Shown here: positions 1 through 29,541 of the stretch, piece by piece | How the letters are laid out: every line of letters starts with the position of its first letter | Position numbering within the stretch: position 1 is the stretch's first letter | DNA from: Paracoccus suum | Lineage (GTDB): Bacteria; Pseudomonadota; Alphaproteobacteria; Rhodobacterales; Rhodobacteraceae | Reading direction: 5' to 3' | Assembly (NCBI RefSeq): GCF_003324675.1 | Contig: NZ_CP030918.1 | Coordinates: forward strand, 420,001-452,000 | Length of the DNA: 32,000 bases | Position numbers and translations under genes: made by a program | Notes under the pieces: model-generated | Databases searched by the model: none | Seen by the model: only the letters and a program-made list of their open reading frames with translations | What the model was told of the DNA's origin: nothing

Positions 1-1229
1 TAGTCATCGGTGCCGGGGTGGTCGGCCTGTCGGCCGCGTTGGCGCTGACGGCGCGCGGCCGGCAGGTCACGGTGCTGGATCGCGCGGGCCCCGCGGCCGG
101 CGCCTCGGCGGGGAATGCCGGCGCCTTTGCCTTTACCGATATCCTGCCCTTGGCCTCGCCCGGCATCTTTCGCAAGGCGCCGGCCTGGCTGCTCGATCCA
201 CTCGGCCCGCTCAGCGTGCCGCCGCGCTATGCGCTGCGCGTCGCGCCATGGATGATCCGCTTTGCCCGCGCGTGCGCCCCCAGCCGGGTCGCCGCCTCGA
301 CCACCGCGCAGACCGCACTGATGGACCTGTCCCGGGCCGAGTTGGAGGGGTTTCTGGCCGCCACCGGCACCAGCGCCATGCTGCGCCGCGACGGCAACCT
401 GCAGGTCTATGAATCCAAGGCAGAGTTTCAGGCGAGCCTGCCGGGCTGGGATGCGCGCGCCGCGCATGGCATCGCGTTCCAGCACCTCGACCCCGCCGGC
501 ATGGCCGCGATCCAGCCCGGCCTGGCACCCCGGTTCCTGCGCGGAACCTTCACCCCCGGCTGGTTCTCCATAGCCGATCCACGGCTTTACACGCTCGCCC
601 TCGCTGACCGCCTCATCGCCATGGGCGGCAGGATCGAACAGGCAGAGGTCACCGCCCTCCGCCCTCTCGATAGCGGCGTCCGCGTGGCGACCTCCGCCGG
701 CATCCGCCGCGCTGCGAACGTCGTCCTCGCCGCCGGCGCCCATTCGCACCGCATCGCCCGCACCTTGGGCGAGCGCATCCCGCTTGAGACCGAGCGCGGC
801 TACAACACCACCCTGCCCCCCGGCGCCTTCGACCTGCGCACCCAGGTCACCTTTGGCGGTCACGGGTTTGTCGTCACGCGCCTGTCGACCGGCATCCGCG
901 TCGGCGGCGCGGTCGAGCTTGGTGGACTGACCGCCCCGCCGAACTTTCGCCGCGCGCGGGCGATGCTGGACAAGGCACGCGCGTTCCTGCCGGGCCTTGA
1001 TCCATCGGGCGGCACGGAATGGATGGGCTTTCGCCCCTCGCTGCCGGATAGCCTGCCCGCCATCGGCCCAGCGCGCGCTACATCGCGCGTGGTGTTCGCC
1101 TTCGGCCACGGGCATCTTGGCCTGACGCAATCGCCCGGCACGGCGCGGCTGGTCGCCGACCTGGTGACCGGACGGCCAGCCGCGCTGGATCTGTCCCCCT
1201 TCTCGCCCCAAAGATTTTCGAGGTTCTGA
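1..1229 (+). CDS. FAD-dependent oxidoreductase of the D-amino-acid dehydrogenase (DadA/DAO) family; probable D-hydroxyproline dehydrogenase. The 5' end lies off-window.
   Basis: The frame is open from base 3 (VIGAGVVGLSAALAL, a GxGxxG FAD fold already under way at the window edge). Stop is TGA at 1227-1229. The ORF-track entry 18..1229 is the in-window part. The stop overlaps the next ATG (TGATG). The function is inferred from its position next to a hydroxyproline epimerase. Confidence 0.8.
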   Translation, partial: VIGAGVVGLSAALALTARGRQVTVLDRAGPAAGASAGNAGAFAFTDILPLASPGIFRKAPAWLLDPLGPLSVPPRYALRVAPWMIRFARACAPSRVAASTTAQTALMDLSRAELEGFLAATGTSAMLRRDGNLQVYESKAEFQASLPGWDARAAHGIAFQHLDPAGMAAIQPGLAPRFLRGTFTPGWFSIADPRLYTLALADRLIAMGGRIEQAEVTALRPLDSGVRVATSAGIRRAANVVLAAGAHSHRIARTLGERIPLETERGYNTTLPPGAFDLRTQVTFGGHGFVVTRLSTGIRVGGAVELGGLTAPPNFRRARAMLDKARAFLPGLDPSGGTEWMGFRPSLPDSLPAIGPARATSRVVFAFGHGHLGLTQSPGTARLVADLVTGRPAALDLSPFSPQRFSRF

Positions 1230-2245
1230 TGGCCGTTCACATGTTTTCCTGCCTCGACGGGCACACCTGCGGCAACCCGGTCCGGCTGGTCTCGGGCGGC
1301 GGCCCACGCCTCAATGGTGCCACCATGCTGGAGCGCCGGGCCGACTTCCTCGCCAACCACGACTGGGTCCGCACCGGCCTGATGTTCGAGCCGCGGGGCC
1401 ATGACATGATGTCCGGCTCGATCCTTTATCCGCCGACGCGCGAGGATTGCGACGTGGGCGTGCTGTTCATCGAGACCTCGGGCTGCCTGCCGATGTGCGG
1501 CCACGGGTTGATCGGCACCATTACCATGGGCATCGAGAACGGCCTCATCACCCCGCGCGCACCGGGTCGCCTCGCGGTCGACGCCCCCGCCGGCCGGGTC
1601 GAGGTCGCCTACGTCGAGGAGGGTCGTTTCATCGAGGAAGTGCGGCTGACCAACGTCGCCAGCTATCTCCATGCCGAGGGTCTGACCGCCGAGGTCGAGG
1701 GCCTGGGCGAGATCGCGGTCGACGTCGCCTATGGCGGAAACTTCTACGCCATCGTCGAGCCGCAGGCCAATTTCCGCGACATGGCCGACCACAGCGCGGG
1801 CCAGTTGATCGAATGGGCCCGCCGCCTGAGGGCGGCGCTGAACGCGAAATACGAGTTCGTGCATCCCGACCATCCGGCAATCCGCGGCCTGTCGCATATC
1901 CAGTGGACCGGCGCACCGACGCAGGCCGGCGCCCATGCGCGGAACGCAGTGTTCTATGGCGACAAGGCCATCGACCGCTCGCCCTGCGGAACCGGCACCT
2001 CGGCCCGCATGGCGCAGCTCGCGGCCAAGGGGCGCCTCGCGGTCGGCGATGATTTCGTCCACGAATCGATCATCGGCAGCCTGTTCAAGGGCCGCGTCGA
2101 GGCTGCCGCGACGGTGGGTAGCGGCGAAAATGCCAGCCAGCCGGCGATCATCCCCTCGATCGCCGGATGGGCGCGCCAGACCGGGATCAACACGATCTTC
2201 ATCGACGACCGCGACCCGTTCGCGCATGGCTTTGTCGTGACGTGA
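1229..2245 (+). CDS. Proline racemase superfamily enzyme with a Cys/Cys catalytic pair; most likely 4-hydroxyproline 2-epimerase.
   Basis: 338 aa. Family motifs are present: [13 protein letters not shown] (first catalytic Cys) and [14 protein letters not shown] (second catalytic Cys). The ATG at 1229 overlaps the upstream stop by 1 nt. The stop at 2243-2245 overlaps the next start (GTGA). Confidence 0.85.
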
Positions 2246-3918
2246 CGGGCCTCGCGATCCTTCCCGGCACGGCCAGCGGCCCGGTGCTGGAACTGACCGA
2301 ACGCCTCAGCCTCTGGGGCGGGGTCGACCCGCTCAGCGGGCGGATCATCGATGCACATCACCCGCAGGCGGGGCAGGATCTCGCCGGGCGGGTGGTGCTG
2401 ATGCCGACCTCGCGCGGGTCGTGCAGCGGCAGCGGCGTGTTGCTGAACCTGGCGCTGTCCGGCACCGCGCCCGCCGCCCTGGTGTTTCGCGAGGCGGAGG
2501 ACATCCTGACTTTGGGCGCCCGGGTCGCCGACATCATGCTCGGACGCCCCCTGCCCGTCGCGCGTCTCGCTCCGAGTGCCTATGCATCGCTTGCGGCGGT
2601 GCCGGCGGCCGCGATCACGCCGGACGCCATCATCGCGCCCGGCTTGCACATCCCCCTGAGGCCCCAGACCGCCGAACTCGCGCTGAGCGACGACGACCGG
2701 GCGATGCGCGACGGGCGTGACGGACCGGCCGTGCAAATCGCCATGCGCCTGTTGATCGCATCGGCTGCGCAGCAGGGGGCGGCGGAGCTGACAGATGTCT
2801 CGCGCGTGCATATCGACGGCTGCATCTACGCCAGCCCCGCCAACCTGCGCTTTGCCGAGACAATGGCCGCAATGCGCGCGCGGGTGCGCGTGCCGACGAC
2901 GACCAACGCGATCTCGGTCGATCATGACGGATGGCCAGCGCAGGGCGTGCCCTCGTCCTTTGGTGAGCCGGCGCAGGCGCTGGCCGATGCTTACGTGGCC
3001 ATGGGCGCCAGCCCCAGCTTTACCTGCGCACCCTACCAGAACGACCCGCCAGCCTTTGGCGAAGTGATCGGCTGGGCGGAATCGAACGCGGTGATCTATG
3101 CCAACAGCGTGCTGGGCGCGCGGACGCTGAAGCATCCCGACTTTCTCGACCTGTGCATCGCCCTGACCGGCCGCGCGCCGCTGGCCGGCGTTTACCAGAC
3201 CGAGGCGCGGCGACCGGCCGTCATTCTGGACGTGACCCCGCCGCCGCAGGCAGATGATGCCTTCTGGCCGCTGCTTGGCCATCTCGCCGGCAGCCTAGCG
3301 CCCGACGCCATCCCCCTGATCCGCGGCTGCGCGGCGATGCCGGTCTCGCCCGACGACTTGCGCGCACTCTGCGCCGCCTTCGGCACCACCTCGGCCGCGC
3401 CGATGCTGCATCTGGAGGGGCACACGCCCGAAGCGACCCTGCCGCCTGTTCCCGGCGCGCGGACCATCGCCGTCGGCCTGCCGATAATGGCGGCCGATTT
3501 CGCGGCGCTGAACGACGCGCCGGACCGGGTCGATCTGGTGGCGATCGGCAGCCCTCATGCCTCGGCCGCGGAGTGCCGGGCGCTGCTGGCGGCGCTGGAG
3601 GCCGACCCGCGCCCGCTGGCGCCGCGCCTGTCGCTGATCGTGACGCTGGGGCGCGAGACGCTTGAACAACTCGGCGGCAGCGGCATTGCCGCGCGGCTGG
3701 CGGCGCGCGGCGTCCGGGTCGTGCCAGACCTCTGCTGGTGTTCGATCAGCGAGCCGGTGTTCCCGCCTTCGGCCCGCGTGGTGATGACCAATTCGGGCAA
3801 ATATGCCCATTACGGCCCCGGCCTGACCGGCCGCCGCTTCCGCTTTGGCGGCCTTGCCGCCTGCGTCGAGGCGGCGCTGGGCGGCGTCGCGCCCCCGCCC
3901 CCCGCCTGGCTTTCCTGA
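2242..3918 (+). CDS. Aconitase X (AcnX), single-polypeptide form with a swivel (DUF126-like) N-terminal domain and a catalytic (DUF521-like) C-terminal domain; probable cis-3-hydroxy-L-proline dehydratase.
   Basis: The N-terminal ~135 aa read [37 protein letters not shown]...[15 protein letters not shown], typical of the AcnX small subunit. The rest ([11 protein letters not shown]..., [43 protein letters not shown]) is typical of the large subunit. I place the start at in-frame GTG 2242, which overlaps the upstream TGA by 4 nt. The ORF-track start at 2167 would overlap the epimerase by 79 nt. Confidence 0.8.
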
Positions 3919-3925
3919 GGGTTTC

Positions 3926-4954
3926 ATGCGCAGCACCAAGATCGTCCACGTCATTTCCGCCCATGCCGAGGGCGAGGTCGGCGACGTCATCGTCGGAGGC
4001 GTCACCCCGCCCCCCGGCGCAACCCTGTGGGAGCAATCGCGCTGGATCGCCCGCGACGGCACCCTGCGCGCCTTTGTCCTGAACGAGCCGCGCGGCGGCG
4101 TCTTTCGCCACGTCAACCTGCTGGTTCCGCCCAAGGACCCGCGCGCCGACGCCGCCTTTATCATCATGGAGCCGGAGGACACGCCGCCCATGTCCGGCTC
4201 GAACAGCATTTGCGTCGCGACCGTCCTCCTGGACGCCGGTATCCTGCCGATGACCGAGCCGGCGACGCACCTGACCCTCGAGGCGCCGGGCGGGCTGGTC
4301 GAGGTGCGTGCCGAATGCAGCGGTGGCAAGGCGCAGCGCATCTTTGTGCAAAACCTACCCAGCTTTGCCGGCCGTCTCGATGCCGCGTTGGAGGTCGAAG
4401 GCCTCGGCAGCCTGACGGTCGACACCGCCTATGGCGGCGACAGTTTTGTCGTGGTCGATGCCGCGCGGATGGGCCTCGGCCTGACCGAGGATGAGGCGCA
4501 TGACATTGCTCGCCTCGGCGTGCGCATCAGCGACGCCGCGACCGAGCAACTCGGCTTTATCCATCCGGAAAACCCCGACTTGCGCCACATCTCGTTCTGC
4601 CTCTTTGCGGGTCCGTTGCAGCGGACCGAGGCCGGATTGCGCGCCCGCGCCGCGGTTGCGATCCGGCCCGGCAAGGTGGACCGCTCGCCCACCGGCACGG
4701 CGCTGTCCGCGCGCATGGCCCTGCTGCATGCGCGCGGACACATGGCGGTCGGCGACAGCCTCGAGGCGGTATCGGTGATCGGCTCGACCTTTCGCGGCCG
4801 GATCCTTGGCGAGACCGCGGTTGGCAGCTTGCCGGCGATCCGGCCCGAAATCTCGGGCCGCGGCTGGATCACCGGGATGCACCAGCACATGCTGGACCCG
4901 GATGATCCCTGGCCTGGGGGCTACCGCCTAAGCGATACCTGGGGCGCGCGGTAG
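3926..4954 (+). CDS. Proline racemase superfamily paralogue with Ser/Thr at the two catalytic positions; candidate trans-3-hydroxy-L-proline dehydratase or related non-epimerase.
   Basis: ATG 3926 ([21 protein letters not shown]...) is preceded by GAGGG, 7 nt after the AcnX stop. The family fold is colinear with the 1229..2245 paralogue, but PMSGSNS replaces PMCGHG and [14 protein letters not shown] replaces [14 protein letters not shown]. Confidence 0.8.
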
Positions 4955-17078: not shown

Positions 17079-17876
17079 CTAGCCCAGACGGTGGACGCCC
17101 TCGGGCGCGACGCCGAATGCAGCGAGGGCCATCCACACCGCCATGGCGATCATCATCAGGTTCTCGACCAGCGAGATAAAGCCCAGCGGCACGTTGCTGC
17201 CCCCGCCGACGCAGGCGCATTTCAACTCGCGGTTCTCGACATAGACCGCCTTGAAGACCGACACCGCGCCGACCGTCCCGATGAAAAGTGCGATGGGCAC
17301 CGACAGCCAGGTCAGCGCGCCCGCGATCATCAGAACGCCTGCCAGCCCCTCGGCAAAGGGATAGATATAGCCGTAGGGCACCCAGCGCTCGGCCAGAAGG
17401 TCGTAGTTCAGGAACATCGTGGCGAACGTCTCGACGTTCTGCAGCTTGAGCAGCGCCAGCACGGCCATTGAGAAGCCGATGAACCATTCCGCGGCCATCA
17501 GCGTCAGCGGGTTTCCGGTGACAGCATAGCTTGCCGCCATCGCCATCAACGCCGTCGTCGCGAACAGCGCGATGACCGGGCGATAGCTGGTCGCCTTGGG
17601 ATCCGCGACACTCTTGCCGAGGAAGCGGCGCAGGTCGTCATGCCCGCCGATTCGTTTGCCGTCGATAAAGATCTGGGGCGTGGTCGCAACGCCGTGTTCG
17701 GCCTTGAAGGCCTGGGTCTGCTCGCGTGTCTCGAGGTGATGATCCTCGACCTGGTAGCCGGCGCGCTTGAGCAGATGCATGGATTTCAGCCCATAGGGGC
17801 AGGTGTGCCCGGGCATCACCATGCGGTACAGCGCCGCTTTCGTTCCGGGTGCTGGATGTTTGCTCAGGTCCGACAT
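17079..17876 (-). CDS. Fusion protein: an N-terminal glutaredoxin-like domain (monothiol CPYG) joined to a C-terminal MauE/DoxX-like 4-TM membrane domain.
   Basis: ATG 17876 (MSDLSKH...) is preceded by AAGGAA. The Grx fold reads ALYRMVMPGHTCPYGLKS...TTPQIFIDGKRIGGHDDLRRFL. Four hydrophobic helices follow, with ELKCACVGGGSNVPLG before the last one. Confidence 0.8.
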   Translation of the reverse strand: MSDLSKHPAPGTKAALYRMVMPGHTCPYGLKSMHLLKRAGYQVEDHHLETREQTQAFKAEHGVATTPQIFIDGKRIGGHDDLRRFLGKSVADPKATSYRPVIALFATTALMAMAASYAVTGNPLTLMAAEWFIGFSMAVLALLKLQNVETFATMFLNYDLLAERWVPYGYIYPFAEGLAGVLMIAGALTWLSVPIALFIGTVGAVSVFKAVYVENRELKCACVGGGSNVPLGFISLVENLMMIAMAVWMALAAFGVAPEGVHRLG

Positions 17877-17906
17877 CTCACGTTCCTTGTGGTGGGGCCG
17901 GGGCAG

Positions 17907-17938
17907 ATATAGGGTCTGTACCATGGTACAGAGTCAAG
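17907..17938 (-). promoter_or_regulatory. MerR-type promoter/operator for the Grx-MauE gene: -35, 20-bp spacer carrying an 18-bp perfect palindrome, -10.
   Basis: The minus strand reads CTTGAC (17938-17933), then T-CTGTACCATGGTACAG-ACC, then CTATAT (17912-17907). The palindrome TCTGTACCATGGTACAGA spans 17915-17932. The layout mirrors Tn21/Tn501 merO (TTGACTCCGTAC...GTACGGA) inside an overlong spacer. Confidence 0.65.
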
Positions 17939-18327
17939 AGTCGAACACGCTGACGATTGGCGGCCTTGCAGCAGGCGGGAAGGTCGGGGTCGAGACGGTC
18001 CGATTCTACCAGCGCAAGGGTCTGCTCGGCACGCCCCACCGCGTTGGCGGGATCCGTCGCTACGGCGGCGAGGATCTGCGCCGCCTGCGCTTTATCCGCC
18101 AGGCACAGGCGGCCGGGTTTACACTGGAGGAGATCAAGGAACTGCTGCTCCTCGACGCCGGCGAGGACCGCGCGCGGGCGCGCGAACTCGCCCACGCAAG
18201 GGTCGAGCATCTGAACGCCAAGATCGCCGATTTAGAGCGCGCAAGGGACGCCCTGCGGCGGCTCGCAAACGAATGCGAGCATGGCGTCAAGGGCCCCTGC
18301 CCGATCCTCGCGTCATTCGGGATTTAG
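17923..18327 (+). CDS. MerR-family metal/thiol-responsive regulator of the Hg-MerR clade by sequence, but with only two Cys.
   Basis: 134 aa. MVQSQESNTLTIGGLAAGGKVGVETVRFYQRKGLL...IRRYGGEDLRRLRFIRQAQAAGFTLEEIKELL...ANECEHGVKGPCPILASFGI is colinear with Tn21 MerR. ATG 17923 is in frame with the ORF-track entry 17803..18327 and gives a MerR-length N-terminus. Confidence 0.9.
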   Translation: MVQSQESNTLTIGGLAAGGKVGVETVRFYQRKGLLGTPHRVGGIRRYGGEDLRRLRFIRQAQAAGFTLEEIKELLLLDAGEDRARARELAHARVEHLNAKIADLERARDALRRLANECEHGVKGPCPILASFGI

Positions 18328-20959: not shown

Positions 20960-21036
<77 letters not shown>

Positions 21037-21076: not shown

Positions 21077-22288
21077 TCAGGCGAACAGCTCGCGGCAGAA
21101 GATCAGGCCGTCGATCAGGGCGTCAACCTCGGCCTCGGTGTTGTAGAGGGCAAAGCTGGCACGGGCGCTCGCGGTAACGCCGTAGAACTGCATCAGCGGC
21201 ATGGCGCAGTGGGTGCCGGCGCGGATGGCGATGCCGCGCTTGTCGAGGATGGTCGAGAGGTCATGCGCATGCGCCCCCTCCATCGTCATCGAGAAGATCG
21301 CCCCTTTGCCCGGTGCATCCCCCTGGACGGTCAGCCAGTTCAATTCCCGCAGGCGCGCGCGGGCGTGGTCGCGCAGCGCACGCTCATGCGCGGCGATGTT
21401 CTCCATCCCGAGGCCCATCATGTAGTCGAGCGCGACGCCCAGGCCGATCTGGTTGACGATGCCAGGCGTGCCGGCCTCGAACCGCAGCGGCGGGTCGGCA
21501 TAGGTCACGGCCTCGCGCGTGACCTCCCGGATCATGTCACCGCCGCCCATGAAGGGGCGCATCTCGTCCTGGCGGGCGCGGTCGATCCAGATCGCACCCG
21601 AGCCGGACGGGCCATACAGCTTGTGCCCGGTGATGGCGTAGAAGGCGCAGCCAAGCGCCGGCACATCCAGCGGCAGGTGGACGGCAGCCTGGCTGCCATC
21701 GACCAGAACCGGAACGTCAGTGCCGCGCGCGATGGCGCCGACATCGACGACGGTGCCCGTCACGTTCGACATGTGGGTGACGGCGATCAGCTTGGTGCGG
21801 GGGGTGATCGCAGCCAGCATCTTTTCCGGCGGCAAGCTGCCGTCGGGTTCTGGCTCGACCCATTTCAGCACGACGCCCTGACGCTCGCGCAGGAAAGCCC
21901 AGGGGACGATATTGGCGTGGTGCTCCAGCACCGACAGCAGGATCTCGTCCCCGGCCTTCAGGCGCGGGGCGGCCCAGGAATAGCTGACCAGATTGATGGC
22001 CTCGGTCGCGCCGGAGGTGAAGATCACCTCGGCCGGATGGCGCGCCTTGAGGAAGCGGGCGATGGTGCCGCGCACCGCCTCGTAACGCTCGGTCGCAAGG
22101 GTCGACAGCGTGTGCAGCCCGCGGTGGACGTTGGCGTATTCGCCTTCGTATGTGCGCGAGATGGCGTCGATCACGACGCGCGGCTTTTGCGCGCTGGCGC
22201 CGTTGTCGAGGTAGACCAGCGGCCGGCCGTTGACCTGCCGCGACAGGATCGGGAAATCGGCGCGGATGGCGGGCAGATCAAGCGTCAT
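21077..22288 (-). CDS. sufS: Cysteine desulfurase SufS (group II).
   Basis: 403 aa. The PLP-Lys motif is [13 protein letters not shown] and the active-site motif is RAGTHCAMP. The ATG overlaps the upstream stop (ATGA). Confidence 0.9.
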
Positions 22289-22878
22289 GGCAGCGCCTCC
22301 GGGGCGGGCAGCAGGCCAAGCATGGCCAGAACGACGCTGAGGACGGCGCCGGTCAACATCAGCGTCGAGACCATGCCAAGGGCGACGAGGAAGGGATTGG
22401 AAAATCCGTGCAGCGCGGTCGTCACTCGCACCGCCAGAACGACATAGAGCGCCAGCGTCGCCAGCGACAGCATGGTAGAGGCAGAGGGCAGGACCACCAT
22501 GAGCGCCAGTTGCACGGCCTGCGCGGCGATGATGATCAGGTCGATCCAGGTCAGCGCCAGCAACGCGTCAGGAAAATTGCCATGGCCGCCAAACATCTGG
22601 CCGACGCGCGCCATCAGCGCGGCGGCAGCCGTCAGGGCAAAGAACTGCAGCACCGTCAGTACAATGGGCGAGGCGACCAGCAGCGCGCTGGCGCCCCCGG
22701 CCTGAGAAGGAAACATCAGGTTTGCAAGGCCGGCCAGAATCGAAGACAGGACCGTCGCGAGGGCCAGGGCTGCCCAGCGGTCCGCCATCGGCAGTTGCAG
22801 CCCGCGCATCATGGCGATGGCGCGGTCCGGCCTTTGCAGGGTCAGCATGGCCATGCGCGTGAAGGCCGACGGGTTCAT
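22285..22878 (-). CDS. Polytopic membrane protein, Yip1-domain-like, function unknown.
   Basis: ATG 22878 (MNPSAFTRMAMLTLQRPDRAI...) is preceded by AGGAAA. 197 aa with about 5 hydrophobic helices. It overlaps both neighbours by 4 nt (ATGA at each end). The family call is from general appearance only. Confidence 0.7.
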   Translation of the reverse strand: MNPSAFTRMAMLTLQRPDRAIAMMRGLQLPMADRWAALALATVLSSILAGLANLMFPSQAGGASALLVASPIVLTVLQFFALTAAAALMARVGQMFGGHGNFPDALLALTWIDLIIIAAQAVQLALMVVLPSASTMLSLATLALYVVLAVRVTTALHGFSNPFLVALGMVSTLMLTGAVLSVVLAMLGLLPAPEALP

Positions 22879-23387
22879 TTTCCTGGCCTTTCGATCAACG
22901 CCCGCACACCCGAGAGCCAGATGAACAGGAACCCGGTCCCGGCCAGCAGCCGCGTCGCGGTCAGCGCCGGGCCGGGACCGACCAGCCCCTCGGTGAGACC
23001 AGCCAGCAACATCGCCGGGGCAACGGCCAGCAGTGCCCAGAAGAGCGCGAGCCGCGAATCGGCTGGGTGGAGCACCCATCCGCCAAGGCGTAGCAGCCAA
23101 CTGAGCGCCTGCGCCGCGCCGTAGGCAGCCAGCGGCATCAGGAACATGACGGCAAGCCCTGCCCCGGCCAGGCGCGGTCCCAACGGAATCCCCGGGTCCA
23201 GCGCCGCTGCCCGCGCGTGGCCGGGCGCCTGCGCGATCAGGAAGACCAGCAGCGCCGCCAGCAGGAGCGCCAGCAGGGCGCCCTCGGGCATGCCGCGCAA
23301 TCCGCGCACGACCCGCCCCGGTGCGAACCAGCTTTCCAGCACGCGCGGCGCCAGGCCGCGGGCGGCGCGGGGCGGCGCCGGTCTCAC
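22875..23387 (-). CDS. Polytopic membrane protein, possible paralogue of the downstream Yip1-like protein, function unknown.
   Basis: 170 aa from GTG 23387, which overlaps the sufD stop (GTGA). It has an Arg-rich N-terminus followed by 4-5 hydrophobic helices (LLALLLAALLVFLIA, AGLAVMFLMPLAAYGAA, LALFWALLAVAPAMLLAGL, LLAGTGFLFIWL). The coupling at both ends argues that it is real. Confidence 0.6.
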   Translation of the reverse strand: MRPAPPRAARGLAPRVLESWFAPGRVVRGLRGMPEGALLALLLAALLVFLIAQAPGHARAAALDPGIPLGPRLAGAGLAVMFLMPLAAYGAAQALSWLLRLGGWVLHPADSRLALFWALLAVAPAMLLAGLTEGLVGPGPALTATRLLAGTGFLFIWLSGVRALIERPGK

Positions 23388-24646
23388 CCGCCGTTGCCAA
23401 TCTGGCCGGCGTCGGCGGTCAACGCCTCCTCGACGCGGGCAGAAATGCGGCTGCGCAGGCCGTCATCCTCGATCTCGGCCAGCGCGTCGGCGAGGAAGGA
23501 GAGCACCAACAGCACTTCGGCCTGAGCCTTGGGCACGCCGCGCGAGCGCAGGTAGAACAACGCCGTCTCGTCGATCGCGCCGGTGGTGCTGCCGTGGCTG
23601 CACTTCACGTCGTCGGCGTAGATTTCCAGTTCGGGCTTGGCGAGGAACTGGCACAGTTCATCCAGCAGCAGCGACTGGCTGATCTGGTAGCCGTCGGTTT
23701 TCTGCGCGCCCGGCCGGACCAGGATCTTGCCCTGAAAGATGCCGGTCGCGCTGCCCCGTAGTACCTTTTTGAACACTTGGCGGCTTTCACCGCGCAGGCC
23801 GCCGTGAATGATGAATACCGTGTCATCGTTGATGAAATCGCGGCCATCGCCCAGCGCGGCGCCGGCCAGATGGACCACCGCGTCATCGCCGACGACATCG
23901 ATCACTGCCTCGCGACGAAGATGCCGGCCATCCAGCGCCAGCGCAAAGGACTTGAGCACCGATTCGTTGCCGAGACGCGCGAACAGATGCGAGAGCGCCA
24001 GTTCGTCGCCGCGGCGCTTGGCGGCGATCAGGTGCAGCTTGGCACCGTCGGCGAGATCGGCCTCGATCACCGAGTTCTGTCGCGAGCCGGCCGAGCCGGT
24101 CTCGATCAGTGTCAGCTCGGCCCCCGGTTCGAGGTGGATGACATGGTGCCAGACCGCATCGCCGGCCGCCTCGGTGCGCCGATGCAGGATGTGAAGCGGC
24201 CGCGTGGGGCGGCCGGTGACGCGGATCGCGAGGCCATCCGCGGCCCTTGCGGTATTCATCGCCGCCAGGGGACGCGGCACCGGGATATGCGCCGCCGCCT
24301 CGCGCGCGCCGTAGGCGCGGCGCGCCCAGTCCGGCGCTGCCGCCAAGGGCGCAATCTCGACCCCGTCCAGCGGCAGCGGATCGGAGGCTGCGGCGTCAAA
24401 ACGGCCATCCACGAAAACCAGCGTCAGGCGGTCCAGATCGGAGAACAGCGTGCCGTCGCCCTGCGGCAGGGCGACGGAAGGCGCATCGCCCTGCGAGAAA
24501 TCGGCTGGGCCGGCAAAGCGCCAGTATTCGTCCCGGCGGCCGGGCAGGCCCAATTGCGCCAGGCGATCCTCGGCCGCTTGCCGGGCGACGCCTAGGGGCG
24601 AATCGCTCGCCGGGGTTCGGGTCAGGACAGGTGACAGGTCCGCCAT
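23384..24646 (-). CDS. sufD: Fe-S cluster assembly protein SufD.
   Basis: 420 aa with a beta-helix-type SufD C-terminus (...QKTDGYQISQSLLL...AKPELEIYADDVKCSHGSTTGAIDE..LFYLRSRG). The ATG overlaps the sufC stop by 1 nt. Confidence 0.9.
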   Translation of the reverse strand: MADLSPVLTRTPASDSPLGVARQAAEDRLAQLGLPGRRDEYWRFAGPADFSQGDAPSVALPQGDGTLFSDLDRLTLVFVDGRFDAAASDPLPLDGVEIAPLAAAPDWARRAYGAREAAAHIPVPRPLAAMNTARAADGLAIRVTGRPTRPLHILHRRTEAAGDAVWHHVIHLEPGAELTLIETGSAGSRQNSVIEADLADGAKLHLIAAKRRGDELALSHLFARLGNESVLKSFALALDGRHLRREAVIDVVGDDAVVHLAGAALGDGRDFINDDTVFIIHGGLRGESRQVFKKVLRGSATGIFQGKILVRPGAQKTDGYQISQSLLLDELCQFLAKPELEIYADDVKCSHGSTTGAIDETALFYLRSRGVPKAQAEVLLVLSFLADALAEIEDDGLRSRISARVEEALTADAGQIGNGG

Positions 24647-25401
24647 CAGCGGGCCTCCGACAGGATCGCACCGTAACCGTCGCGCTCGACCTCCAGCGCC
24701 AGCTCGGGGCCGCCGCTGCGCACGATCCGGCCATCAGCCATGATGTGCACCACGTCCGGGCGGATATGGTCCAGCAGCCGCTGGTAGTGCGTGATGACCA
24801 GGAAGGCGCGATCCGGTGCGCGCAGGGCGTTCACCCCCTCGGAGACGAGGCGCATGGCATCAACGTCGAGGCCGCTGTCGGTCTCGTCAAGGATGCACAT
24901 CCGCGGCTCCAGCATGGCCATCTGCAGGATTTCGTTGCGCTTTTTCTCGCCGCCCGAGAAACCGACGTTGACCGGACGCTTCAGCATCTCGGCGTCGATC
25001 TTCAGCGCATTGGCTTTCTCGCGCACCAGCTTGAGGAAGTCGCCGGCCGAAAGCTCGGCCTCGCCGCGCGCCTTGCGCTGGGCGTTCATCGCGGTGCGCA
25101 GGAAGGTCATATTGCCCACGCCCGGGATCTCGACCGGGTACTGGAACGCCAGGAACAGGCCCGCGGCGGCACGGTCCTCGGGCTCCATCTCCAGCAGGTC
25201 GACGCCGTCCAGCGTGGCTGTACCCTCGGTCACCTCATAGCCGTCGCGACCTGACAGCACATAGCTGAGGGTCGACTTGCCCGAGCCGTTCGGCCCCATG
25301 ATGGCATGGACCTCGCCGGCCGGAACGCTCAGCGTGACGCCCTTGAGGATTTGCTTGTCCTCGTCCTCGAGCTTGACGTGAAGGTCGTTGATTTCCAGCA
25401 T
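24646..25401 (-). CDS. sufC: Fe-S cluster assembly ATPase SufC.
   Basis: ATG 25401 (MLEINDLHVKL...) is preceded by AGGTAGGA. Walker A is GPNGSGKST, the signature is FSGGEKKRNEILQ, and Walker B is CILDETDSGLD. Confidence 0.95.
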   Translation of the reverse strand: MLEINDLHVKLEDEDKQILKGVTLSVPAGEVHAIMGPNGSGKSTLSYVLSGRDGYEVTEGTATLDGVDLLEMEPEDRAAAGLFLAFQYPVEIPGVGNMTFLRTAMNAQRKARGEAELSAGDFLKLVREKANALKIDAEMLKRPVNVGFSGGEKKRNEILQMAMLEPRMCILDETDSGLDVDAMRLVSEGVNALRAPDRAFLVITHYQRLLDHIRPDVVHIMADGRIVRSGGPELALEVERDGYGAILSEAR

Positions 25402-25441
25402 GGTCCTACCTGTCCGCAAGGCCCGCCGCGGTCGGCCGGGC

Positions 25442-25467
25442 TTAGAATAACTGATCCGTCAAAGTTC
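25442..25467 (-). promoter_or_regulatory. Candidate ECF/sigmaE-like internal promoter ahead of sufC.
   Basis: The minus strand reads GAACTT (25467-25462), then 15 nt, then TCTAA (25446-25442). It sits in the single AT-rich island of the 275-nt sufB-sufC spacer, about 40 nt upstream of the sufC ATG. This is pattern resemblance only. Confidence 0.2.
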
Positions 25468-25676
25468 GTGTCGTCCGCAGGCCATCGCCTATCCCGATTT
25501 CCCCCGCGCGGCCAGACCGTCCGCCATCCGGCGCGGGGCGCCAAAGGCGCATGTGCCTTGGGGCGATATGGGACTGGGCGCGTTAGACATGCTCAAGACA
25601 TTCCCATGGCGGGCTGGGCCATTGGCCGGAACGATGGTTTGATGGCGACCGCCCCAGGCACGGGGCGGCGGCTTTG

Positions 25677-27200
25677 TCAGCCGACGCTGCCCTCGAGGCT
25701 GATGGCGACCAGCGCCTGCGCCTCCATGGCGAATTCCATCGGCAGGGCCTGAAGCACCTCGCGGCAAAAGCCGTTCACGACCAGGGCGACGGCTTCCTCC
25801 TCGTCCATGCCGCGCTGACGGCAGTAGAACAGTTGCTCGTCATCGACCTTGCTCGTGGTCGCCTCGTGCTCGACGCGCGAGGACATGTTCTTGACCTCGA
25901 TATAGGGCACCGTGTGGGCGCCGCATCGATCGCCGATCAGCAGGCTGTCGCACTGCGTGTAGTTGCGGCTATTGGTCGCCTTGGGGTGCATCGTCACCAG
26001 CCCGCGATAGGTATTCTGGGCGCGGCCGGCGCTGATCCCCTTGGATACGATGCGCGAGCGGGTGTTGCGGCCAAGATGGAGCATCTTGGTTCCGGTGTCG
26101 GCCTGCTGGCGGTTGTTGGTGATCGCGATCGAATAGAATTCGCCCTGCGCGCCATCACCGCGCAGGATGCAGGACGGGTATTTCCAGGTAATCGCGCTGC
26201 CGGTCTCGACCTGGGTCCACATCACCTTGGCGTTCGCCTCGCGGCAATCAGCGCGCTTGGTGACGAAGTTGTAGATTCCGCCGTTGCCTTCCTCGTCGCC
26301 CGGAAACCAGTTCTGGACAGTCGAGTATTTCACCTCGGCATCCTCGAGGATCACCAGTTCGACCACCGCGGCGTGCAGCTGCGCGGTGTCGCGCTTGGGC
26401 GCGGTGCAGCCCTCGAGGTAGCTGACATAGCTGCCTTTGTCGGCGATGATCAGCGTCCGCTCGAATTGGCCAGTATTCTCGGCATTGATGCGGAAATAGG
26501 TCGACAGCTCCATCGGGCAGCGGGTGTTCGGCGGGATGTAGACAAAGCTGCCGTCCGAAAACACTGCGCTGTTCAGCGTCGCGAAATAGTTGTCCGACTG
26601 GGGCACGACGCTGCCGAGGTACTTCTTGACCAGCTCGGGATAGTCGCGGATCGCCTCGCTGATCGGGCAGAAGATCACGCCGGCTCGGGCCAGTTCTTCT
26701 TTGAAGGTGGTGCCCACGCTGACGCTGTCGAAGACGGCATCGACGGCGACCCGGCGGCCCTCGGCGGGGGCCGCGTCCTCGCCCTCGACTCCAGCGAGGA
26801 TCGCCTGTTCCTTCAGCGGGATACCCAGTTTGGCATAGGTCGCCAGCAGCTTGGGATCGACGTCATCCAGCGATTGCGGGCGCACCACCATGCTTTTGGG
26901 GCGCGCGTAATAATACTGGTCCTGGAAATCGATGTCGGGGTAATCGACCATCGCCCAGCGCGGCTCTTCCATCTGCTGCCAGCGGCGGAAGGCGGTCAGA
27001 CGCCATTCGGTCATCCATTCCGGCTCTTCGTTGCGCTGCGAGATCAGTCGGACGATATCCTCGGAAATGCCCTTTGGGGCATACTCCATCTCGATTTCGG
27101 TATCCCAGCCGTATTTGTAGGCGCCCATGCCCTGCACGGTTGCAACCGTCGCGGCGTCGACACCCTCGCGGACGTCAAGATCAAGTGCGGCCTCGGCCAT
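25677..27200 (-). CDS. sufB: Fe-S cluster assembly scaffold SufB.
   Basis: ATG 27200 is preceded by AGGAGG and a 6-nt spacer. The ORF-track start at 27206 is a TTG. The protein reads as typical SufB throughout (...[17 protein letters not shown]..., ...[11 protein letters not shown]..., ...[19 protein letters not shown]). Confidence 0.95.
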
Positions 27201-27202
27201 GG

Positions 27203-28273
27203 TCAACCTCCTGCCCGGCCTGCGCCGGATCCGCGCCTGCGTGCCTGCCAGCGATCACGGGCAGCGCACCAGGCGTCGGCGAAACGTTCAACTTCGTCCC
27301 GGCTGGTGTCCGGTCCGATCGATACGCGAATGGCACACGAGGCATCGTCTTCACTGACGCCCATGGCCCGCAGGACCCCGCTTGGCCGGACCTTCCCGGA
27401 CGAGCATGCCGAGCCTGCCGAAACGGCGAACCCGGCCAGATCCATCTGCATGACCTGCGTCTCGCCCAGCCAGCCGGGCGTCAGGATGCACAGCGTGCCC
27501 GGCAAACGCCGCGTCTCGCGTCCCGGCAATCTAGTCATTCCGGCGGAGGCTTCCACCCTGCTTTGCAGGTAATCGCGCAACTCCGACAGTTTTTCTGGGA
27601 TACCTCGGCTCAGATCGGCCTGCGCGGCGGTTGCCGCGGCGGCAAACCCCAGGGCGCCGACCAGATTTTCGGTCCCCGCGCGGCGTCCGCTCTCCTGCCC
27701 GCCGCCCCTGATTCGCGCCTGCAGGTCCAGCCCCTTGCGCAGGACCAGCGCGCCAATGCCCTTGGGGCCGCCCAGCTTGTGGGCCGAGACGATGCCGGCA
27801 TCTATGCCGGACCAGTCAAACGCAAAGGGCAGCTTGCCGAAGAGCTGCGTCAGATCGCTGAGGGCGAGGCCCGGTGGCAGGTCCTGCAGCACCCCGGTCT
27901 CGCTGTTCGCGGCCTGCAGGGTCGCGCGCGCCGGGTCGGGCACCGTCACCCGGCCGTCGTCCGCCACCCCCAGATCGGCCCGCGTCCAGGCGAGGATGGC
28001 GTCATGCTCGACCGCGGCTGAGGACAGATCGCGCCCCGCAAGGGCCAGCGCCGCTGCTTCGGTCGCGCCCGAGGTGAAGACGACATCGGCCGCCTCTGCG
28101 CCCAGCGCGGTCGCCACCGCCTCGCGGGCGCGTTCCAGCGCCATCTTGGCGGCCCGCCCCTCGGCGTGAACTGACGACGGGTTACCGACCAGTGCAAAGC
28201 CCTCGGCCATTGCCGCCCGCGCCTCGGGGCGCAGGGGCGCGGTCGCGTTCCAGTCCAGATAGACTCGACTCAT
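27203..28273 (-). CDS. Cysteine desulfurase, group I (IscS/NifS-like).
   Basis: ATG 28273 ([14 protein letters not shown]...) overlaps the coaBC stop (ATGA). The PLP-Lys motif is [14 protein letters not shown] and the mobile-loop Cys motif is SAGSACSSG. The upstream part of the ORF-track entry (to 28372) lies inside coaBC. Confidence 0.9.
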
Positions 28274-29541
28274 CGCGGGGCGGGCGGCACAAGAGGCGCC
28301 GGCGCCGCCAGCGCCTCGGCAACCCGCGTGGCAAGGCGGCGGGCGACCTCGGCCTTGGGCAAGCGCGGCCATTCCTCGGCGCCCGCCGGTGTGATCAGGG
28401 TGACGGCATTCTCGGTCCCGCCCATGATCCCGGTGCCCGGGCTGACGTCATTGGCCACGATCCAGTCGCAGCCCTTGCGTGCACGCTTGGCCGTGGCATG
28501 GGCGATCACGTCGTGAGTCTCGGCTGCAAAACCGACCACCAGCGCCGGCCGGCACGGCCCGGGCTGGCTGACGGTCGCCAGAATATCGGTGTTCTCGGCC
28601 ATCTGCAGGCTCGGCGGGCGGCCGCTGCCGTCCTTCTTGATCTTGCGGTCCGAGCCGTTTTCAACACGCCAATCTGCCACAGCGGCCGCCATGACCGCCA
28701 CGTCGACGGGCAACGCGGCTTCCACGGCCCGCGCCATCTCGGCCGCGGTCTCGACCTTGACCACCTCAACCCCGGGGGGCGGCGGCACCTCGGCAGGTCC
28801 CGTGACGAACACCACTTCCGCCCCCAGATCGCGCAACGCGGCGGCAATCGCCGTGCCTTGCGCGCCTGAACTGCGGTTGGCGATGTAGCGCACCGGATCG
28901 ATCGGCTCGTGCGTCGGCCCCGAGGTAACCAGAACCCGCCGCCCCGCCAGCGGCGCCGGGGCGGCAAGCGGCGGATTTGCCAGATCGGTCAGTTGCAATG
29001 CACCGCCCAGCGCCCGCCGGATCGCGGCAAGGATCGCCGGCGGCTCTGCCATGCGGCCGGGGCCGAACTCGCCGCAGGCCATCGGCCCCTCGTCCGGGCC
29101 GACGAAGCTGACGCCATCGGCGCCCAACTGCGCCCGGTTGCGACGGGTCGCGGCGTGATCCCACATCCGCACGTTCATCGCCGGCGCCATCAGCACCGGC
29201 TTGTCCGTTGCCAGCAACAGGGTCGAGGCCAGATCATCCGCGAGGCCCGCCGCCAGCTTGGCCATCAGATTGGCCGTGGCCGGGGCGACGACCACCAGAT
29301 CGGCCGCGCGCGACAGCTGGATATGGCCCATCTCGGCCTCGCGCGTCAGGTCGAACAGCTCCTGATTCACCGCCTGCCCCGCCAACGCCGCGACGCTGAG
29401 CGGGGTCACGAACTCCGCACCCGCCTCGGTCAGCACTGGCGCGATCTCGACCCCTTCGCGGCGCAAAAGCCGGATCAGTTCCAGGGTCTTGTATGCCGCA
29501 ATGCCGCCGCCGATGACCAGAAGAACCCGTTTGCCGTGCAT
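28270..29541 (-). CDS. coaBC: Bifunctional phosphopantothenoylcysteine decarboxylase / phosphopantothenate-cysteine ligase CoaBC (Dfp).
   Basis: 423 aa. The flavoprotein N-terminus reads KRVLLVIGGGIAAYKTLELIRLL...PAMNVRMW. The CoaB half reads ...VRYIANRSSGAQG...AAAVADW.... GAGGG lies upstream of ATG 29541. Confidence 0.95.
   Translation of the reverse strand: MHGKRVLLVIGGGIAAYKTLELIRLLRREGVEIAPVLTEAGAEFVTPLSVAALAGQAVNQELFDLTREAEMGHIQLSRAADLVVVAPATANLMAKLAAGLADDLASTLLLATDKPVLMAPAMNVRMWDHAATRRNRAQLGADGVSFVGPDEGPMACGEFGPGRMAEPPAILAAIRRALGGALQLTDLANPPLAAPAPLAGRRVLVTSGPTHEPIDPVRYIANRSSGAQGTAIAAALRDLGAEVVFVTGPAEVPPPPGVEVVKVETAAEMARAVEAALPVDVAVMAAAVADWRVENGSDRKIKKDGSGRPPSLQMAENTDILATVSQPGPCRPALVVGFAAETHDVIAHATAKRARKGCDWIVANDVSPGTGIMGGTENAVTLITPAGAEEWPRLPKAEVARRLATRVAEALAAPAPLVPPAPR

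Follow-up and report, generated by a model that had tools for sequence, protein, structure and literature searches.

What do two genes for membrane proteins do inside an operon for iron-sulfur (Fe-S) cluster assembly by SUF, a system that is usually described as fully cytosolic and that is the sole Fe-S assembly route in this operon type? The question is posed by a 32,000-nucleotide stretch of the Paracoccus suum genome (contig NZ_CP030918.1, positions 420,001 to 452,000, hereafter the window), in which the minus strand carries both membrane genes plus all suf genes in the order sufB-sufC-sufD-ORF1-ORF2-sufS. Open reading frame (ORF) 1 (22875-23387, GTG start, NCBI locus tag DRW48_02110) encodes 170 amino acids (aa), and ORF2 (22285-22878, ATG start) encodes 197 aa. 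A preliminary description, made from the sequence alone, had placed a tandem pair of genes for polytopic membrane proteins between sufD and sufS, and this was borne out by coordinates, GC content at third codon positions (GC3), homologues and transmembrane (TM) helices. The GC3 values of ORF1 and ORF2 were 0.84 and 0.83, respectively, compared to 0.82–0.89 for the suf genes, and both translations were 100% identical to annotated P. suum proteins. Sequence comparison and gene order make it nearly certain that the two genes are the P. suum counterparts of RSP_0433 and RSP_0432 of Rhodobacter sphaeroides, an apparently Rhodobacterales-specific insertion of Yip1 paralogues in the isc-suf operon.

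Family membership of the two proteins

ORF2 is a Yip1-domain protein, as the preliminary description had supposed from its appearance. It scored 33.1 bits against Pfam Yip1 (PF04893), above the gathering score of 28.6, with residues 13-181 aligned to positions 3-171 of the 173-position profile. PF04893 was precomputed on every listed ORF2 homologue, and the P. suum annotation of the protein (100% identity) reads 'YIP1 family protein'. Hydropathy revealed five hydrophobic segments, and the AlphaFold2 model (predicted local distance difference test, pLDDT, 88.8; predicted template modelling score, pTM, 0.82) contained two short N-terminal helices followed by five long ones. The Yip1 feature of a cytosolic N-terminal segment followed by five TM helices is thus seen in ORF2. 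ORF1 departs from it in having only four TM helices, both by hydropathy and in its AlphaFold2 model (pLDDT 95).

The ORF2 family, with members of ~195 aa, is large and fast-evolving. An exhaustive search of cluster representatives retrieved 761 clusters (50% identity) at E ≤ 1e-3 and 277 at E ≤ 1e-10, compared to 4 and 26 proteins found by word-index searches with a single sequence and a profile, respectively. In alignment A2, whose members were not picked by motif, the near-invariant residues of ORF2 were P17, P71, Q78, G93, G97, G98, G100, W111, Q123, P131, L148, H157, G158 and F159. Loops of the protein carry the conserved motifs GxxFGGxGxFxD and LHGF, and under a positive-inside topology GxxFGGxGxF and HGF are predicted to fall in two cytoplasmic loops; variability is greatest in the loops predicted to be periplasmic. 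There is no cysteine in ORF1 or ORF2, and most family members are also devoid of it.

The relationship of ORF1 to Yip1 emerged from its homologues, of which a search found 438. ORF1 itself had no match in Pfam or NCBIfam, with Pfam Yip1 silent even at E ≤ 10, and NCBIfam held no model for either protein. BLASTP detected no similarity between ORF1 and ORF2, and a Paracoccus-only ORF1 profile aligned to ORF2 with an hhalign probability of 1.6%. An ORF1 alignment built from 76 diverse genomes gave a probability of 90% (E = 1.5e-6) over 144 collinear columns, placing ORF1 14-164 on ORF2 8-156. Of eight orthologues of ORF1 in other genera, five passed the Pfam Yip1 threshold with 28.7–44.1 bits, covering profile positions ~1-150 of 173, and genes at the ORF1 position in distant loci carried a precomputed 'Yip1 (weak)' label. 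Because of the diverse-profile alignment, the Yip1 membership of these orthologues and the four helices, we consider ORF1 to be a diverged Yip1 paralogue minus the fifth helix, in agreement with the preliminary description, which had called the first gene a diverged paralogue of the second. Conservation in ORF1 peaked in the third helix (RLALFWALLAxxPxMLLxG), which suggests a role of this helix in packing.

The profile searches and structure prediction that had been recommended at the outset placed the pair in the Yip1 family, with five and four helices, and yielded no analogue in the PDB. A PDB profile search returned 0 hits at E ≤ 1, and Foldseek against the PDB gave nothing significant, with best E-values of 0.23 and 0.93 and query-normalised TM-scores ≤ 0.38.

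The reading frame of ORF2 is also open upstream across the whole of ORF1, giving a listed ORF of 371 aa with a TTG start (22285-23400, minus strand). This longer frame is likely a high-GC artefact, which could mislead gene callers.

Conserved position and published counterparts

Synteny was sampled by a back-translated scan for GxxFGGxGxFxDA with one genome per species, which yielded at least 120 loci; it is a sample of members with this exact motif and not a census. Twenty of the 120 listed motif loci were discarded because they were either Gly/Phe regions of actinobacterial DnaJ or antisense frames. The Gly/Phe-rich linker of DnaJ matches the ORF2 loop motif by chance, as seen in loci L006, L008, L012, L026, L028, L054, L077 and L099.

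Among the matches listed, the order sufD-ORF1-ORF2-sufS on a single strand was found in all 100 genuine loci (77 complete, 23 cut by the end of the locus yet consistent, and no exceptions), and the ORF2 family occurred in no other genomic context. The hosts were Paracoccus, Tabrizicola, Thioclava, Rhodobacter, Phaeovulum, Albidovulum, Pararhodobacter, Defluviimonas, Rhodobaculum and other Rhodobacterales, together with loosely named metagenome-assembled genomes (MAGs). Relatives at 27–30% identity, Amylibacter among them, also lay between sufD and sufS. In Amylibacter and related MAG loci there were three Yip1 genes of 157–165, 219 and 200–205 aa (L121, 4787-6603; L123, 4765-6618), and a third MAG locus among the distant relatives had two, so that the number of Yip1 paralogues ranged from two to three across loci while their location was unchanged. 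The distribution within suf operons, which the preliminary description had named among the checks to make, supports conservation of the pair, and as far as synteny goes its association with SUF is real; the orthologues are moreover co-transcribed in R. sphaeroides (PMC4618611). In Caulobacter, sufD is directly followed by sufS and then by a SufT-like gene and sufA, with no Yip1 pair (PMC11475020). Given the sampled hosts and the adjacency of sufD and sufS in Caulobacter, the insertion looks specific to Rhodobacterales, as far as the motif-limited sample reaches. The median identities to P. suum were 87% for SufB, 85% for SufC, 80% for SufS, 62% for SufD, 57% for ORF1 and 39% for ORF2.

The arrangement has appeared in the literature before. 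RSP_0433 and RSP_0432 were listed as isc-suf operon genes of R. sphaeroides in 2015 and 2019 (Remes et al. PMC4618611; Nie et al. PMC6956336), and reverse transcription PCR spanning RSP_0432-0431 demonstrated co-transcription (PMC4618611). Conservation of the arrangement was described as high across Rhodobacteraceae, and the gene order in Paracoccus as similar, with iscR located elsewhere in P. denitrificans (PMC6956336). ORF1 is the positional counterpart of RSP_0433 and ORF2 that of RSP_0432. We infer orthology from profile hits in the loci of Rhodobacter sp. SY28-1, R. calidifons and Phaeovulum veldkampii, the Rhodobacter and Phaeovulum loci matching both the ORF1 and the ORF2 profile, and from the gene lengths in PMC5513736.

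Transposon sequencing (Tn-seq) of R. sphaeroides by Burger et al. (2017) found 0 Tn5 insertions in both RSP_0432 (579 bp, family-wise error rate, FWER, 2.7e-8) and RSP_0433 (480 bp, FWER 2.2e-6; PMC5513736 Table S1). Both genes were placed among the essential genes beside sufB, sufC, sufD and sufS, and the other bacteria compared had no essential orthologue (PMC5513736). This essentiality was measured during aerobic growth in lysogeny broth (LB), and the paper is silent on polarity; insertions upstream of the essential sufS could account for the result (PMC5513736).

An older annotation quoted in PMC4618611 labelled RSP_0433/0432 as 'putative sulfate transporter', which the 2019 paper of the same group replaced with 'Yip1 family' (PMC6956336). 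The sulfate transporter label is unsupported by our searches, in which Pfam/NCBIfam gave Yip1 only and Foldseek gave nothing significant. No function was assigned to a pair of the RSP_0433/RSP_0432 type in the literature searched. The pair had initially been called uncharacterised, which holds for its function; it has not gone unnoticed, as it was named in PMC4618611 and PMC6956336 and scored in PMC5513736. Because arrangement, conservation and apparent essentiality are already published, the novelty is low, and the value of the locus lies in flagging an easily testable functional question rather than in discovery.

The junctions of the two genes are tight. The TGA stop of sufD overlaps the GTG start of ORF1 (GTGA, 23384-23387), ORF1 and ORF2 overlap by ATGA (22875-22878), and the TGA stop of ORF2 overlaps the ATG start of sufS (ATGA, 22285-22288). 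These three 4-nt overlaps are exactly where the preliminary description had placed them, but its reading of them as 'hard-wired' genes under 'obligatory co-translation' is too strong, with overlaps running along the whole operon and varying across genera. Overlaps also join coaBC and the iscS-like gene (ATGA, 28270-28273), the latter and sufB (TTGA), and sufC and sufD (TGATG); since start/stop overlaps are the rule along the operon, those at the Yip1 genes are no distinguishing mark. Across genomes, the -4 overlap of ORF1 and ORF2 was found in 66 of 93 loci, and ORF2 and sufS overlapped by -4 in 40 and by -8 in 18 of 86 loci. The sufD/ORF1 junction was variable, and start-codon choice is least reliable there. 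Tight coupling is common and not obligatory, and it is no evidence of a physical complex.

Candidate roles at the SUF machinery

The best explanation of the locus as a whole, which joins the Yip1 counterparts to a docking role, is one that we put forward tentatively and with somewhat less than even confidence. The docking mechanism itself, in which the pair would serve SufBC2D/SufS as a heteromeric factor for docking or assembly at the membrane, is possible and rather uncertain. ORF1 and ORF2 would form a heteromeric membrane complex, like eukaryotic Yip1 and Yif1, whose paralogues are reported to act as heteromers (PMC6682643). As an accessory subunit in docking or assembly, the complex might hold or modulate the otherwise soluble SufBC2D-SufS machinery on the cytoplasmic side of the inner membrane, with contact made through the predicted cytoplasmic ORF2 loops bearing GxxFGGxGxFxD and LHGF. 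A possible parallel is YknW of Bacillus subtilis, the one bacterial Yip1-family protein whose role is described, which modulates the assembly of the ABC-type (ATP-binding cassette) transporter YknXYZ (PMC4887032). ORF1 and ORF2 would themselves carry neither clusters nor persulfide, as no cysteine is conserved; a role as cluster or persulfide carrier was rejected on the same ground.

The docking mechanism is favoured by the finding that both predicted cytoplasmic loops are the best-conserved segments of ORF2. Several points weigh against it. Contact with the Suf proteins is something we only infer, and the topology derives solely from hydropathy and the positive-inside rule. Loop conservation is partly circular in the motif-selected loci, because these were chosen by the loop motif, although the independent A2 alignment still shows it. 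The zero insertions in Tn-seq may reflect polarity on the essential sufS (PMC5513736), and ORF1 (57%) and ORF2 (39%) diverge much faster than SufB (87%), SufC (85%) and SufS (80%). The analogy with YknW extends to the Pfam family and no further, and the PDB offers no structural analogue.

The same position could also suit a small transporter or channel that brings in or takes away a substrate of Fe-S assembly (Fe2+, cysteine or another sulfur compound, or alanine) beside SUF, a role that we consider unlikely. The two proteins jointly have nine TM helices, are strictly linked to suf, once bore the sulfate transporter label quoted in PMC4618611, and have conserved polar residues in or near helices (Q78, W111, Q120 and Q123 in ORF2; Q53, R59 and R112 in ORF1). 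However, conserved ligands of the acidic, His, Met or Cys type are absent from these helices, and conservation is strongest in the loops. No likeness to a transporter family appeared in Pfam, in NCBIfam, in the sequence search of the PDB or in Foldseek, the 2019 paper had moved to 'Yip1 family' (PMC6956336), and no Yip1 protein is called a transporter in the literature consulted.

Quite improbable, in our view, is that the genes are passengers fixed by history, with a function unrelated to Fe-S and an apparent Tn-seq essentiality that is polar on sufS. Their position was kept in 100 of 100 listed loci and in relatives with as little as 27% identity, whereas flanking small ORFs at other points of the operon vary; the sample held the ORF2 family in no other context, and the paralogue number shifted from two to three without a change of location. 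This stands against divergence faster than that of the core Suf proteins, an absence of Fe-S-type residues, overlapping junctions that are generic in the operon and a Tn-seq study without a polarity control, all of which speak for passengers. We give very little credence to an adaptor that directs Fe-S clusters, or passes them on, to membrane client complexes (respiratory or photosynthetic) instead of being a general SUF subunit. Such an adaptor would explain the membrane location and the suf linkage; the Rhodobacterales loci seen end at sufS without a carrier gene, while in Caulobacter sufS is followed by SufT-like and SufA genes, and in R. sphaeroides isc-suf expression is reportedly tied to the formation of photosynthetic complexes (PMC7728643). 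Yet non-phototrophs such as Paracoccus keep the pair equally, the apparent essentiality came from aerobic growth in LB, and neither cysteine nor other cluster ligands are conserved. The roles proposed in the preliminary description (import of iron or sulfur, cluster delivery to proteins of the membrane, redox sensing) found no direct support, with no conserved cysteine, transporter family match or structural analogue.

The docking or assembly role has a stronger form, which we hold to be doubtful: the SUF system of Rhodobacterales would be membrane-tethered, the Yip1-like heteromer being an essential subunit that is integral to the membrane and binds SufBC2D and/or SufS, with a third paralogue in some roseobacters. 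If true, bacteria would have in it their first Fe-S assembly system bound to a membrane, and prokaryotic Yip1 proteins their first defined biochemical role apart from efflux pumps. The pair would then add a second functional context for prokaryotic Yip1 proteins after YknW. That such a membrane pair separates sufD from sufS across the order implies a further level of SUF biology in Rhodobacterales, which comprise major marine roseobacters and model phototrophs.

The operon, its window and known systems

The SUF core is complete at this locus, with sufB, sufC, sufD and sufS all present and adjacent according to NCBIfam and Pfam models. On the minus strand, coaBC (28270-29541) is the upstream neighbour of the Fe-S genes, the first of which is an iscS/nifS-like cysteine desulfurase gene (27203-28273) that matched Pfam Aminotran_5, with NifS/IscS models below their cut-offs. 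It is followed on the same strand by sufB (25677-27206; NF008773, 885 bits, with TIGR01980 and NF008773 above cut-off), sufC for the ABC-type ATPase (24646-25419; TIGR01978, 357.9 bits, above cut-off) and sufD (23384-24646; Pfam SUFBD_core, E = 1e-59), the best match of which, TIGR01981 with 193.7 bits, was under the 222-bit cut-off. Downstream of the two Yip1 genes, the type II cysteine desulfurase gene sufS (21077-22288, minus; TIGR01979, 505.5 bits compared to a cut-off of 475) is the final gene of the operon. A tRNA-Arg(CCG) gene (20960-21036, minus, the same strand as sufS) lies ~40 bp 3' of the sufS stop. The promoter/terminator scan found no terminator-like sites on the coding strand inside the Yip1 region.

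Pfam scans of plausible ORFs in the 32-kb window detected no SufE, SufU/IscU, SufA/IscA, SufT or Rrf2, which agrees with the earlier observation that a carrier gene (sufE, sufU or sufA) is missing from the window. The lack of an Rrf2 gene is consistent with iscR lying elsewhere in Paracoccus (PMC6956336).

At the upstream end, the coaBC stop overlaps the start of the iscS-like gene (ATGA), with no iscR/Rrf2 gene upstream, and the pantothenate-cofactor and Fe-S genes may be co-translated through this overlap. The 257-bp gap between sufB and sufC (25420-25676) has no convincing ORF in P. suum; elsewhere in Rhodobacterales it holds ORFs of 60 aa and 116–172 aa, and R. sphaeroides reportedly carries RSP_0439 there.

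Two other loci in the window were recorded. A 281-aa fusion of a glutaredoxin and a MauE-like membrane protein is encoded at 17079-17924 (minus strand), divergent from a MerR-family regulator gene at 17803-18327 (plus strand), and the two possibly form a membrane thiol-redox module. At 1229-4954, an aconitase-X gene lies between two proline-racemase-family genes, a gene set that we take to resemble a hydroxyproline catabolism cluster.

Among known systems, YknW of B. subtilis is likewise a small membrane protein with a Yip1 domain, and its gene shares an operon with that of an ABC-type ATPase, which here is SufC. In contrast to SufBC2D, which has no membrane domain, the partners of YknW are a true permease, YknZ, and a membrane fusion protein, and they act in toxin efflux; the likeness of YknW to ORF2 is that of a shared Pfam family alone. 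Eukaryotic Yip1/Yif1 (YIPF) proteins share with ORF2 the Pfam domain, the five-helix topology and the cytosolic N-terminal segment. They work in vesicle traffic between endoplasmic reticulum and Golgi, which has no counterpart here; ORF1 has four helices only, and the likeness of ORF2 to eukaryotic Yip1 is at the level of the Pfam threshold (33 bits).

Compared to the suf operons of Escherichia coli (sufABCDSE) and Caulobacter (iscR-iscS-sufBCDS, with a SufT-like gene and sufA), the core order of sufB, sufC, sufD and sufS is the same. In these canonical operons sufD is directly followed by sufS and carrier or accessory genes are present, while in P. suum two membrane genes lie in between, and carrier genes are absent from the operon as well as from the window. 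The closest match is the R. sphaeroides operon. P. suum differs from it in that the window shows neither iscR upstream nor an ORF separating sufB from sufC, and its ORF1 is too diverged to match Pfam Yip1 itself. RSP_0433 and RSP_0432, with 480 and 579 bp compared to 513 and 594 bp in P. suum, likewise lie in tandem between sufD and sufS and carry the same Yip1 annotation.

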